Source: Escherichia phage vB_EcoP_phi315
Direction: 5' to 3' (one strand)
Length of the DNA: 59,532 bases
Sequence record: PV189403.1
The translations under genes were made by a program, and so were the position numbers. The notes beneath the pieces were generated by a model. The model saw only the letters and a list, made by a program, of their open reading frames with translations, was not told the DNA's origin and did no database searches. Position 1 is the stretch's first letter. Each line of letters starts with the position of its first letter. Below, in pieces: positions 19,874 through 28,255 of the stretch.

Positions 19874-20488
19874 ATGGCCTATTCAGAGGAACAGCGTCCT
19901 GAGGCGCAACTCGGTAACCAGAATCGTAACAGCCTGAACATTCAGCAACCCGGCGAAACTGACAGCTATGAAGCATTTTTCTCTGATCCGAATCGCTGGA
20001 AGGATAACAGTACGTCGTTCAGCCTGGGCGATGTATTGCCAACAATGGGTAAAGGTTTCGCCCAGTCCGTCCGGGGAACAGGGGAAATGGCCCGTGGACT
20101 CGGTGATGCGATGATTCAGAGCCCGGTAAAAACAGGGGCGCGTATTTTAAATGAGTTCAGCCGTATGGGGCTGCCGGGTGTCGCAACTGTGCAGGATATT
20201 TTTGCCGGTGGCAGCAGGGGGGCTGATGAGGTCATCGATACCCTGCCTGATGGCAAAAACGCGGTGACTGATGCTGTCGGTAAAGGTCTGAAGGTCACAG
20301 GCAAGTCAGTCAGTGATGGTGCTAAAGCCTCGGATGAATGGCTGACCGATAATATGTCGCCGGGTGCTGTGCGTGCGCTGAATACGCCAATGAGTGAAGG
20401 CTATGATGATCCCGCAGTCTGGCTGACTAAGGGGATGAATTTTGATCGGTGCCGTTGCGGCAGATGTGTTTGCTGGCGGTGTGGCTAA
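19874..20488 (+). CDS. hypothetical protein (possibly N-terminal part of a larger product)
   Basis: ATG at 19874 (MAYSEEQ) after GGAG; C-terminal 15 aa are Cys/Arg-rich and overlap the next ORF in another frame. Confidence 0.35.
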   Translation: MAYSEEQRPEAQLGNQNRNSLNIQQPGETDSYEAFFSDPNRWKDNSTSFSLGDVLPTMGKGFAQSVRGTGEMARGLGDAMIQSPVKTGARILNEFSRMGLPGVATVQDIFAGGSRGADEVIDTLPDGKNAVTDAVGKGLKVTGKSVSDGAKASDEWLTDNMSPGAVRALNTPMSEGYDDPAVWLTKGMNFDRCRCGRCVCWRCG

Positions 20489-26200: not shown

Positions 26201-28255
26201 CTGATCCGCAATCGCAAAAATGAAGTGGGTAACGCCTTCCTGAAACTGGTACAGGATAATCCCGACAAGGATTACTGGCAGGTATTCACCGATGACAGAC
26301 CGGATACCATGCGGACGATTGCAGAGCGCAAGGACCAGGAAACTGGTGAAACCATTCGCGAAGTTGTCGAACGCCCTGTACCGATGGCAATGATGGCAGA
26401 CCGGTACTTCACCACCAAAAAGAACGGCAAAACGTACTACATCAAACTCCATGATCCGCGCCTGATGCGTGCGATGAAGAATATGGGACCGGAAACCAGT
26501 AACGCCGTAATCCGCACGCTGGGGAAAGTTAACCGCTTCCTGGCAACGGTGAACACGTCGTATAACCCGGAATTCCTGGTCAGTAACTTCATCCGTGACG
26601 TACAGACGGCGGTGATGAACCTGAAGGCGGAGCAGGGAAGGAGCGACGGCAAACTGAAAGGGCTGGATAACTTATCCGCACTGGCTGTGGTGAAAGACAG
26701 TCGCTCTGCCATGTCTGCCGTATACGCCAGTCTGCGTGGTAAAACCCTCACGGGCAACGGTGCGCAGTGGCAGAAGGTGTGGAAAGAGTTTGTTGAGGAC
26801 GGAGGTAAAACCGGCTGGTTTAACATGGGTGACCTTGAAGGCCAGCAGAAGGAAATGGATCGCCTTGTATCGCTGGCGAAGGGAGGATGGAAAGGCCAGA
26901 GTATCGGTGCATGGAATTCGTTCCTTAACCTTGTCGAGGATGCCAACGGGGCGGTTGAAAACGCTCTGCGTCTTTCTGCCTATAAACACGCCCGTGATGC
27001 CGGTTTGTCACGCCAGCAGGCGGCGTCTCTTGCCAAAAACATGACGGTGAACTTTAACCGTCGTGGTGAGCAGGGAGCGCTGATGAACTCGCTGTACATG
27101 TTCGCCAACGCCAGCATTCAGGGGACCGCAAACCTGGTGAGAACGCTCGGACATCTTAATGGCGACGGGCCGTTACTGGAGCGCCTTCGCTGGAAGAATC
27201 TCAATGTACCGCAGAAAATCGCGCTTGCAGCTGTGGGAGCGGGTTATCTGCTTGGCTCGCTTAACCGCAGTGTTGCGGGGGAGGATGATGACGGGGTTAA
27301 CTGGTATGACAAGGTGCCGTCTCATGTGAAAGAGCGTAACCTCGTCATTATGAAATCGGTGTTCGGGGGCAAGGCCGGAGAGTACTGGAGTATTCCTCTG
27401 CCTTACGGGTACAACGTTTTCTTCCTGCTCGGGCATACCGCTGAAGGTGTGGCGGCGGGTGACCTGACGGCGTCCCGTGCTGCCGGTAATGTTGTTGGTG
27501 GTGTGCTTGGTGCATTCAGCCCGATTGGCAGTGAGACGTCGGAAACACTGTCCGGGGCATTGCTGAAAAATGCAGCGCCGACCATTCTGCGTCCGTTTGC
27601 GAACCTTGCCATGAATGAAAACTTCATGGGGGCGCAGATTTACCAGGAGAACATGCCGTTTGGTACACCAAAACCTGACAGCCAGCTGGGAAGACGTTCA
27701 ACGCCAGAAGCGTACAAGGCGTTTGCATCCTGGCTGAATGCGTTCTCAGGTGGCAGCCAGTACCGTTCAGGCGCGGTGGATATCACACCGGAATCGCTGA
27801 AATACTGGGTGGACTATATCTCTGGTGGTACAGGGCGCTTCATTTCCAAAACCACGGATGCGGCGGTGAAATCGCTGAACGGTATTGATATACCGGAACA
27901 GCAGGTGCCTTTCCTGGGGAAAATTTCAGGTGAGGTGATGCCGTATGCTGACCAGCAGAAGATGTACGACCGGATGACAGAGGTTGCGCAGTATCACGCA
28001 GAGCTGAAGAGTCTGACCGGCGCAGAAAGAACGGCGTTCATTGACGAGAACAACGGAAAATTGTCGATGAACGGGCTTATGCAGGATACCCGGAAGAGAC
28101 TGAAGGATTTGCGTAAACAGCGTGATGCCATTTACGCCGACAGTACTCTCAGTCTGGCGCAACAGTCGGCGATGGTGAAATCGGTAGAGCGGGATATGAA
28201 AATTGCCGTGGATCGGTTTAACCGCGAGTACAACAAAAAAGTGGGAGTGGATTAA
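23279..28255 (+). CDS. giant protein with two HExxH zincin-like motifs (putative polyvalent/injected protein)
   Basis: 1658-aa ORF; motifs LAHEWFH (around aa 150) and RHEIIHH (around aa 415); last gene of the late operon before attP. Confidence 0.5.
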   Translation: MRVRGGFKSASDARKYIDLHRDELVRHVKEMREISREEQRNATNRDRTGPERRKGDVSPEQFSDAFGFRGVQFGNYVESPRRQADLNRAYDSLHDLAEVLNVPTKALSLNGRLGLAFGARGKGKAAAHYESGEVAINLTKGNGPGALAHEWFHSLDNYFGRYDVSSDGKITSGGDFMTEAQRVRRIFKDGRYVDAEYPVRQEVYDAFKGVIQAIKNSDMPRRSALLDEVRSKPYWSTDVEMAARAFERYVQDKARMAGVENDYLVNIRKAPEHNTDNTYAYPTNAELDGGIREAFDHLFRTLKTRETDKGVAFYSRKGMTRTPEGNLISDVNRSAEAKGSPVPQVEAVARGVMSGIKGSDLTVRVVKSQKEAEALAGESFDGYGRVHAFYRPDKREIVLVADNIPDGQTVREKLRHEIIHHAMEHVVTPAEYQTIIKTVLKTRDSDNATIREAWRKVDASYGKESPEVQAGEFLAHMAEKQPNKFVAAWERVVALVKGVLRRTGLLKPTELNDIRLVRETIRTLGQRVREGYTPREDGVGASSQYSRSGKPDPFKVPEGEGERYRDDLARMMKSLRTTDLTVNIGRTPPVLRHLGAPDLPLVISRDTVRKATNGVKHVVPMDVIERLPELMHDPDAIYRSATERNAVVMLLDAVDKNGDPVVSAVHMKATQKLLEVNRIASVYGTENGKKLKSMETAGLTLYRREKLNPDGSLYRGLQLPKDEHSRQGSADKILYPEDIRKGPYYSRTSSLTPEETIASRFVRQMQDKFQVLKAVQENIRKTGGKIDDSNNAYMAEELFHGKAENDLNVMKERYVQPLAKLLADYKIAQADLDEYLYARHAPERNAHIAKINPKMPDGGSGMTNAEAAEIMQRVRNSGKQAQYDRLAGIVDDMLARRRELIREAGLEESGVVDAWQKAYRYYVPLKGQDVDGVVSLPRTGKGFTIGGRESKQAMGRASRAQSPSTQAIQDLSESLIRNRKNEVGNAFLKLVQDNPDKDYWQVFTDDRPDTMRTIAERKDQETGETIREVVERPVPMAMMADRYFTTKKNGKTYYIKLHDPRLMRAMKNMGPETSNAVIRTLGKVNRFLATVNTSYNPEFLVSNFIRDVQTAVMNLKAEQGRSDGKLKGLDNLSALAVVKDSRSAMSAVYASLRGKTLTGNGAQWQKVWKEFVEDGGKTGWFNMGDLEGQQKEMDRLVSLAKGGWKGQSIGAWNSFLNLVEDANGAVENALRLSAYKHARDAGLSRQQAASLAKNMTVNFNRRGEQGALMNSLYMFANASIQGTANLVRTLGHLNGDGPLLERLRWKNLNVPQKIALAAVGAGYLLGSLNRSVAGEDDDGVNWYDKVPSHVKERNLVIMKSVFGGKAGEYWSIPLPYGYNVFFLLGHTAEGVAAGDLTASRAAGNVVGGVLGAFSPIGSETSETLSGALLKNAAPTILRPFANLAMNENFMGAQIYQENMPFGTPKPDSQLGRRSTPEAYKAFASWLNAFSGGSQYRSGAVDITPESLKYWVDYISGGTGRFISKTTDAAVKSLNGIDIPEQQVPFLGKISGEVMPYADQQKMYDRMTEVAQYHAELKSLTGAERTAFIDENNGKLSMNGLMQDTRKRLKDLRKQRDAIYADSTLSLAQQSAMVKSVERDMKIAVDRFNREYNKKVGVD

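Follow-up and report, generated by a model that had tools for sequence, protein, structure and literature searches.

The closest described systems to the gene treated here are found in short-tailed phages of the Shiga toxin (Stx) group. In phage Sp5 (VT2-Sakai) of Escherichia coli O157 Sakai, ORF80 (ECs1242), which encodes a protein of 2,793 amino acids (aa), is one of nine essential morphogenesis genes, and its deletion gave DNA-filled heads of normal appearance that did not bind tail-fibre antibody, formed no plaques and did not lysogenise (Mondal et al. 2016, PMC5155283). Because the deletion abolishes both plaques and lysogenisation, the giant protein has a core role in the virion or in infection. 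In phage phi24B, the giant protein (gp47) was abundant in purified virions by mass spectrometry and was absent from the cryo-electron microscopy (cryo-EM) map, and its authors propose a location inside the capsid and the role of an ejection protein (bioRxiv 10.64898/2026.04.10.717836). On the computational side, Iyer et al. (2017) surveyed such proteins under the name of polyvalent proteins (PMC5512222). Here we describe the locus at 19874-28255 (plus strand) of Escherichia phage vB_EcoP_phi315 (PV189403.1). The whole stretch of 59,532 nucleotides (nt) that was analysed is called the window below, and it is a complete phage genome of the short-tailed Stx type (Sepvirinae). A sequence-only reading of this DNA had reported three overlapping late open reading frames (ORFs) at the locus, the last of them encoding a giant protein with two HExxH motifs. 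Our analysis shows that the region is one late gene for a giant virion protein of about 300 kDa, orthologous to Sp5 ORF80/ECs1242 and to its giant counterpart in phi24B, and that its reading frame is broken twice in the deposited sequence.

All three ORFs were found on the plus strand. ORF1 spans 19835-20488 (217 aa), or 19874-20488 (204 aa) when it is counted from the ATG at 19874, which has a GGAG 6 nt upstream. ORF2 (20442-23288, 948 aa) begins with TTG, and ORF3 (23279-28255) encodes 1658 aa. ORF1 and ORF3 are in the same frame, and ORF2 is one base off. The junctions had been called unnatural in the sequence-only reading, and they are. ORF1 ends with ...NFDRCRCGRCVCWRCG before its stop codon, the terminal stretch being DRCRCGRCVCWRCG, and its residues past 20444 (to 20488) form a Cys/Arg-rich tail. 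This tail is out of frame, because the repaired protein described below has no cysteine at all in its 2,793 residues. The frame of ORF2 opens at 20439 and that of ORF3 at 23186 (KTAPSPDDKIRFDVYRNTRSGDIFIAYGKNKM...), in both cases at or within a few bases of a one-base insertion or deletion (indel). Protein-like sequence continues 5' of the ORF3 ATG, and no Shine-Dalgarno sequence was found before TTG 20442 or ATG 23279.

When A20445 was removed and one A was restored in the A5 run at 23185-23189, an uninterrupted ORF of 2,793 aa was obtained, and the whole gene then occupies 19874-28255 (plus strand, 8,382 nt). Sp5 ORF80 is equally long and likewise closes the late operon, and the C-terminal 914 aa are 98.4% identical between VT2-Sakai and the window (tblastn). 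The Sp5 gene is intact, whereas the window copy is broken by the two one-base indels. In Shigella phage Ss-VASD (3075-11456 of the compared stretch) and in prophages of E. coli 2013C-3033 and E. coli 06-00048, this DNA forms one coding sequence (CDS) of 8,382 nt, where it is annotated as LPD5 or LPD38 domain-containing protein. The repaired protein is 98.6% identical to that of Ss-VASD and, end to end over its 2,793 residues, 96.7% identical to phi24B ADN68472.1 (2,807 aa). The phi24B protein, which from its size and domain content appears to be the gp47 of the preprint, is uninterrupted, has the same allele at the first junction and the same LPD5, LPD1, MuF_C and LPD38 content, and has its annotated start at an ATG that lies 13 codons upstream of the ATG of the window.

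The pieces in the deposited frames also cover the family without a break: the 2,793 positions of PHROG 616 are contiguously matched at 1-189, 190-1103 and 1105-2793. The first segment (19874-20444, plus strand, ORF1 frame) encodes residues 1-190, and its first 189 codons are identical to the allele of E. coli 06-00048. The second segment (20446-23184, plus strand, ORF2 frame) encodes residues ~191-1104, corresponds to PHROG 616 positions 190-1103, and contains a Pro/Glu/Gln-rich low-complexity stretch (~aa 700-900) and the first third of the LPD5 domain. The second frameshift splits the Pfam LPD5 model, so that profile positions 2-50 are found in the ORF2 frame and positions 49-144 in the ORF3 frame. 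The peptides which span the two junctions in the intact protein are GMNFVGAVAADVFAGGVAK and GDEKTAPSPDDK, and the out-of-frame tails read NFDRCRCGR... and QHRLRMTK... We regard it as practically certain that the three ORFs are one gene. The deposited sequence does not have the one uninterrupted frame of the PHROG 616 family, while the collinearity and the gene order of the family are kept. It means that the deposited gene is a family member by descent, but is mis-sequenced or inactivated. The sequence-only reading had suggested one protein joined by frameshifts or errors; the single coding sequence stood, and the joining by designed frameshifts did not, as the indels are private to this sequence.

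The first indel is one inserted A at 20445 (TTTTG(A)TCGG, plus strand), which gives a +1 shift. Relatives with the same local allele (E. coli 06-00048, phi24B and POCJ13) have TTTTGTCGG at this place and read AATTTTGTCGG where the window reads AATTTTGATCGG. Alignment with Ss-VASD had pointed to an extra T (T4 vs T3), and this was ruled out by the same-allele relatives, which place the extra base at A20445. The insertion makes a GATC (Dam) site at 20444-20447 that is not in the same-allele relatives; its creation is probably incidental. The second indel is an A5 run at 23185-23189 (plus strand) where relatives have A6, as shown by alignment with Ss-VASD, phi367 and TL-2011c, and its -1 shift leads back to the original frame.

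Both indels are private, and the comparison set is large: 185 records of phages carry the giant-gene region, as do 427 complete E. coli genomes. The identity over this region is 99.3% to phage phi367, the closest relative in the database, and 98.8% to Ss-VASD. A 71-nt query over the A-run was fully matched in none of 139 phage and 275 E. coli records, and the best match (98.6%) amounted to one gap. For the first junction, a 111-nt query had no gap-free full match in 55 phage and 162 E. coli records; the full-length matches listed span 110 nt, and the closest differs by that gap alone. Other records break the giant gene elsewhere, phi367 into several fragments and TL-2011c into two CDSs. Within the compared stretches, phi367 (PV189406; 3036-11464) has eight single-base gaps relative to the window in the giant gene, and TL-2011c (3075-11574) is ~118 nt longer over this region.

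The split might be functional, either by recoding (+1 near 20441-20445 and -1 on G AAA AAC at 23184-23190) or with three polypeptides acting in trans. The frames overlap by just a few codons and the downstream frames are open at or near the junctions, and the A-run at the second site could perhaps let tRNA-Lys slip. However, neither junction occurs in any relative, the relatives examined have one uninterrupted ORF, and TL-2011c and phi367 are split elsewhere, so the splits are unconserved. The -1 site lies inside the LPD5 domain, a slippery heptamer in the proper frame is missing, as is a Shine-Dalgarno sequence, and the middle piece would have to start at a TTG without a ribosome-binding site. 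Because no split is conserved among the relatives, there is no case for programmed recoding, and with junctions that are unconserved and no proper slippery site we rejected programmed frameshifting. A functional split of either kind is very improbable. Slightly less credit still is given to the idea that the indels are real and the phage is viable nevertheless, with the giant protein made in three pieces or by low-level recoding. If this were true, the N-terminal 190 aa, the middle ~910 aa and the C-terminal ~1,690 aa (with the peptidases, PBECR and LPD38) would assemble and act in trans, and the phage would have dissected by natural means a 300-kDa ejection protein that is otherwise intractable.

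We now consider how the two breaks of this single gene arose. A sequence error is somewhat likelier than a real inactivation, because a third private indel is present in the gene of an MT-A70 DNA adenine methyltransferase (31708-32427, minus strand). At 32296 this gene has G5 for G6. TL-2011c and phage 86 have G6 at this site, and among the matches listed 25 of 25 relatives are one base longer over the stretch. The indel puts the first 14 codons out of frame, so that the start MTKKYTLIYADPPW, which includes DPPW, is lost and an unrelated 44-residue extension is found instead. Of the three private indels, two shorten a homopolymer, and this is the commonest sequencing error. The eight gaps and the fragmented annotation of phi367 also show that such errors are common in the deposited genomes of this group. 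We give sequence error, as the origin of the indels, a modestly better than even chance.

If the indels are errors, the error rate is low. Private changes number three in 59.5 kb, and the early region holds only those of the methyltransferase. All 23 structural CDSs in 1-19800 are intact and collinear with Stx2-converting phage 86, to which the structural half of the window is 97.8% identical. A window riddled with homopolymer errors was ruled out, as these 19.8 kb of structural genes show no net frameshift against phage 86.

The deposited bases could also be taken at face value, as genuine indels in the same single gene of a defective prophage or phage variant that does not form plaques, with the methyltransferase frameshift as further decay. 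The indels, which no relative shares, break an essential gene, and two lesions in one 8.4-kb gene against none in 19.8 kb of structural genes are expected when selection is relaxed after a first hit. In addition, the A20445 insertion is atypical for a homopolymer miscall, and the window has no stx genes, hence it is no standard Stx phage. On the other side, all other structural genes examined are intact and collinear, and the late region has no nonsense mutation, insertion sequence (IS) element or deletion; none of the stretches compared showed an IS element or a large deletion. The two shortened homopolymers among the three private indels also speak against genuine mutation, as does the layout of the window, which starts exactly at the ATG of terL and, we infer, looks like a genome assembled from phage particles. 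We consider genuine decay somewhat less likely than sequence error.

We favour, with some reserve, an intact giant virion protein gene with the function proposed below, whose two frame breaks are sequencing or assembly errors. Several points weigh against it. The inserted A20445 lies outside any homopolymer, and the giant gene, with 14% of the genome, holds two of the three private indels, which fits relaxed selection after a first inactivating hit. The deposited bases alone do not separate error from genuine mutation. On the side of function, cleavage, ejection and catalytic activity are so far predictions for the family members, and the ejection-conduit role is the proposal of a preprint (bioRxiv 10.64898/2026.04.10.717836).

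The giant gene is also a mosaic. While its first 189 codons are identical to the allele of the E. coli 06-00048 / phi24B type, the last 1,689 codons have 10 codon differences to the Ss-VASD allele and 250 to that of 06-00048. Because the 5' and 3' codons match different alleles, the comparison implies that recombination took place inside the giant gene.

Four Pfam domains were called in the repaired protein, all above the gathering thresholds and all defined in the polyvalent-protein survey (Iyer et al. 2017, PMC5512222). Each is encoded on the plus strand. LPD5 (PF18799) covers aa 1051-1200 (23025-23473) with an E value of 1.2e-44 in the intact orthologue, and is cut by the second frameshift; the survey lists it as a potentially enzymatic domain (PMC5512222). 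LPD1 lies at aa 1361-1440 (23954-24193), within the first of the two zincin-like domains described below. MuF_C (PF18819; aa 1750-1837, 25121-25384, E 8e-18) is the PBECR domain with RNase fold, and LPD38 (PF18857; aa 2476-2681, 27299-27916, E 7e-49) is restricted to polyvalent proteins of the phage type (PMC5512222). LPD38 is held by a conserved C-terminal module (~aa 1880-2793, 25511-28252, plus strand), an end which PHROGs 14770 and 10691 share, and in which hydropathy analysis found two segments rich in Gly and Ala, at aa 2443-2468 and 2515-2533, that are moderately hydrophobic.

The C-terminal module reaches far beyond the phages of enterobacteria, and is part of giant proteins in Vibrio, Ralstonia GP4-like and Burkholderia phages and in a Methanosarcina virus. 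By tblastn it matched Vibrio phages at 42%, Ralstonia GP4-like phages and Burkholderia phage BcepMigl at 26-28%, the archaeal Methanosarcina virus MetMV at 28%, and, more weakly, Bacillus phages Page and Palmer. The homologous module of BcepMigl and RPZH6 is labelled "DarB-like antirestriction", and this label is annotation only. The first ~1,050 residues had no family match in Pfam, and the NCBIfam scan gave just CLCA_X over the first zincin-like domain. PDB sequence searches with the whole protein, with the C-terminal module and with a profile of the first zincin-like domain gave nothing meaningful. An AAA+ ATPase (COG1483) was suggested in the Sp5 paper (PMC5155283), and it had no support in the Pfam or NCBIfam scans.

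With LPD5, LPD1, MuF_C and LPD38 in one polypeptide, two conserved HExxH domains and a late-gene position, the giant protein is polyvalent as Iyer et al. 2017 use the term, and as the sequence-only reading had proposed. Like the phage-type polyvalent proteins, it joins several conflict-type domains in one giant late product (PMC5512222). It also shares with them the zincin-like signature, with a His at the end of a strand and an Asp three residues past HExxH, as well as PBECR (MuF-C), a second domain with HExxH or HExxxH, and the LPD38 domain that is confined to phages (PMC5512222). The well-characterised effector domains of polyvalent proteins, namely ADP-ribosyltransferase (ART), methylase, helicase, RNA polymerase and lysozyme, were not found in the window protein by Pfam.

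Both HExxH motifs named in the sequence-only reading are present, HEWFH at 23723-23737 within LAHEWFH and HEIIH at 24524-24538 within RHEIIHH. Two such motifs are far more than the 0.03 expected by chance from the composition of the protein. They mark two putative zincin-like metallopeptidase domains on the plus strand, the first at ~aa 1205-1450 (23486-24220), which includes LPD1, and the second at ~aa 1484-1670 (24323-24883). Homologues of residues 1200-1700 are numerous, and many are stand-alone LPD5-HExxH-LPD1 proteins of ~470-870 aa. Among 62 homologues of domain 1 (42-62% identity), the His of AHYE, HEWxH (H85, E86, H89), D92, D163, Y170, E176 and R180 are invariant. D92 lies three residues past HExxH, and the signature matches that given for the widespread clade of phage-type peptidases (PMC5512222). 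The possible third-ligand residues are the invariant E176 and the near-invariant E183, both on helix 174-192, and the invariant D92. The Pfam LPD1 domain is in effect the C-terminal part of domain 1. In domain 2, H72, E73 and H76 are invariant in 16 sequences, and relatives carry HExxH or HExxxH, the latter being the other peptidase variant described by Iyer et al. (PMC5512222); an acidic position in the EFLAHMAE helix is conserved as well.

Structure prediction agrees with this assignment. The AlphaFold model of domain 1 (predicted local distance difference test, pLDDT, 86; predicted template modelling score, pTM, 0.86) has a helix, three strands, the HExxH helix and a Glu helix, and that of domain 2 (pLDDT 82) has a helix, a three-stranded sheet, the HExxH helix and more helices, so both motifs are on predicted helices. 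The top Foldseek matches of domain 1 were collagenase G, anthrax lethal factor, matrix metalloproteinases (MMPs), BMP1 and Wss1, all weak (E 0.027-1), and the search with domain 2 was noisy. The NCBIfam CLCA_X model matched over domain 1 with E 6e-44, below its curated cut-off. Together these models and alignments give good but not decisive support that both domains are zincin-like. A metalloprotease fold at the HExxH segments had been in question, and both segments fall in predicted zincin-like cores whose motifs are conserved in distant homologues. The two domains lie upstream of MuF_C (25121-25384) and outside any Pfam peptidase model; the phi24B preprint calls MuF-C the metallopeptidase.

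The targets of the two domains can be viewed in two ways. They might act on the host, either as anti-defence effectors, as the sequence-only reading supposed, or on peptidoglycan, since the phi24B preprint proposes degradation of the cell wall by a metallopeptidase (bioRxiv 10.64898/2026.04.10.717836). Polyvalent proteins have indeed been argued to carry counter-defence domains (PMC5512222). The strict conservation of the motifs makes some catalytic role likely. The known phage peptidoglycan peptidases, however, are mostly of LAS/M15/M23 type rather than HExxH zincins. The peptidoglycan idea of the preprint rests on MuF_C as the peptidase, and this is at odds with the definition of that domain, which has an RNase fold according to Iyer et al. 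(PMC5512222). The anti-defence idea was not supported either. The gene is essential in Sp5 (PMC5155283), which fits a purely accessory role poorly and argues for a core one. For peptidase domains of this kind, Iyer et al. prefer autoproteolysis, as in P1 DdrB, which they use as the analogue (PMC5512222). By the same analogy, the HExxH domains more likely process the giant protein itself than act as anti-defence effectors, and an action on host targets is doubtful.

For the short-tailed phages T7 (gp14, gp15 and gp16) and P22 (gp7, gp20 and gp16), capsid-internal proteins are released ahead of the DNA to bridge the envelope. These ejection proteins share the role proposed for the phi24B giant protein (bioRxiv 10.64898/2026.04.10.717836). 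They are, however, three smaller proteins, whereas here there is one polypeptide of 2,793 aa without detectable homology to them and without a lytic transglycosylase domain. The virion RNA polymerase gp50 of coliphage N4 (3,500 aa) is another giant capsid protein of a podovirus which is injected, and the part of it that encapsidation requires contains a zincin-like peptidase domain (PMC5512222). The window protein has no RNA polymerase module, and its likeness to N4 gp50 is one of architecture and lifestyle only. P1 DarB and DdrB are anti-restriction proteins packaged in the head, and DdrB is processed and has a C-terminal zincin-like domain (PMC5512222). In contrast to these, no methyltransferase, helicase or ParB domain was found in the window protein by Pfam.

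Packaging of the protein in the virion is supported by the near-identical phi24B orthologue: virions contain much of it, yet the cryo-EM map does not show it, as fits a location inside the capsid. We propose the following course of action. The giant protein is made late, is present in quantity in virions and is needed for infectious particles, all of which was shown in relatives. It would be packed inside the capsid and leave through the portal and nozzle at infection. The C-terminal module, with LPD38 and its Gly/Ala-rich hydrophobic stretches, may together with the N-terminal region help to build or cross a conduit through the envelope; the C-terminal ~900 residues are the best candidate for a packaging or ejection module. 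The two zincin-like HExxH domains would cut the giant polypeptide into working pieces, and the predicted enzyme LPD5 and the RNase-fold MuF-C/PBECR domain may act in the host early in infection.

The setting of the gene is that of a late operon. Terminase, portal, capsid and tail-fibre genes lie upstream on the same strand, and the giant gene is the last of the operon, after the gene of a 421-aa protein and before a hok/gef-like gene and the integrase; the order around it is the same in Ss-VASD, TL-2011c, phi367 and phi24B. The 421-aa neighbour (18539-19804, plus strand), whose position is kept in Ss-VASD, TL-2011c, phi24B and E. coli prophages, had no match in a Pfam scan. In Sp5, ORF79 adjoins ORF80 by the gene numbering and is essential (PMC5155283), and by position only we infer that the 421-aa protein is its counterpart. 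Directly downstream of the giant gene there is a 38-codon ORF (28321-28437, minus strand). In Ss-VASD and TL-2011c a Hok/Gef family protein is annotated at this position, and the annotation of E. coli 2013C-3033 has a Hok/Gef pseudogene with a frameshift there. The integrase ORF follows at 28793-30127 (minus strand).

Further along the window, tRNA-Met, tRNA-Arg and tRNA-Arg are located at 52373-52622, and after ~530 nt a 645-aa NanS-p-like esterase ORF follows at 53153-55090. The window is without Shiga toxin genes, and no room is left for stxA/stxB between the tRNAs and the NanS-p-like ORF. Because there is no room for them in 52373-55090, the genome belongs to the Stx-phage group but is stx-negative. 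Compared with Stx2 phage 86, the window also has 10 nt deleted at 40409, between the N-like gene and stk in the early-left region.

Earlier work has covered the giant protein by genetics in Sp5, by proteomics in phi24B and by computation in the survey of polyvalent proteins, and the window adds no new biology on it. For the annotation, it means that the three ORFs are to be merged into one gene flagged as frameshifted, with 20445, 23185 and 32296 as suspect bases. A small addition is the placement of two HExxH peptidase-like domains at ~aa 1205-1450 and 1484-1670, outside the Pfam MuF_C domain. The family to which this gene belongs is that of an essential, capsid-packed protein of 2,793 residues in the medically important Stx phages, with a proposed mode of action.

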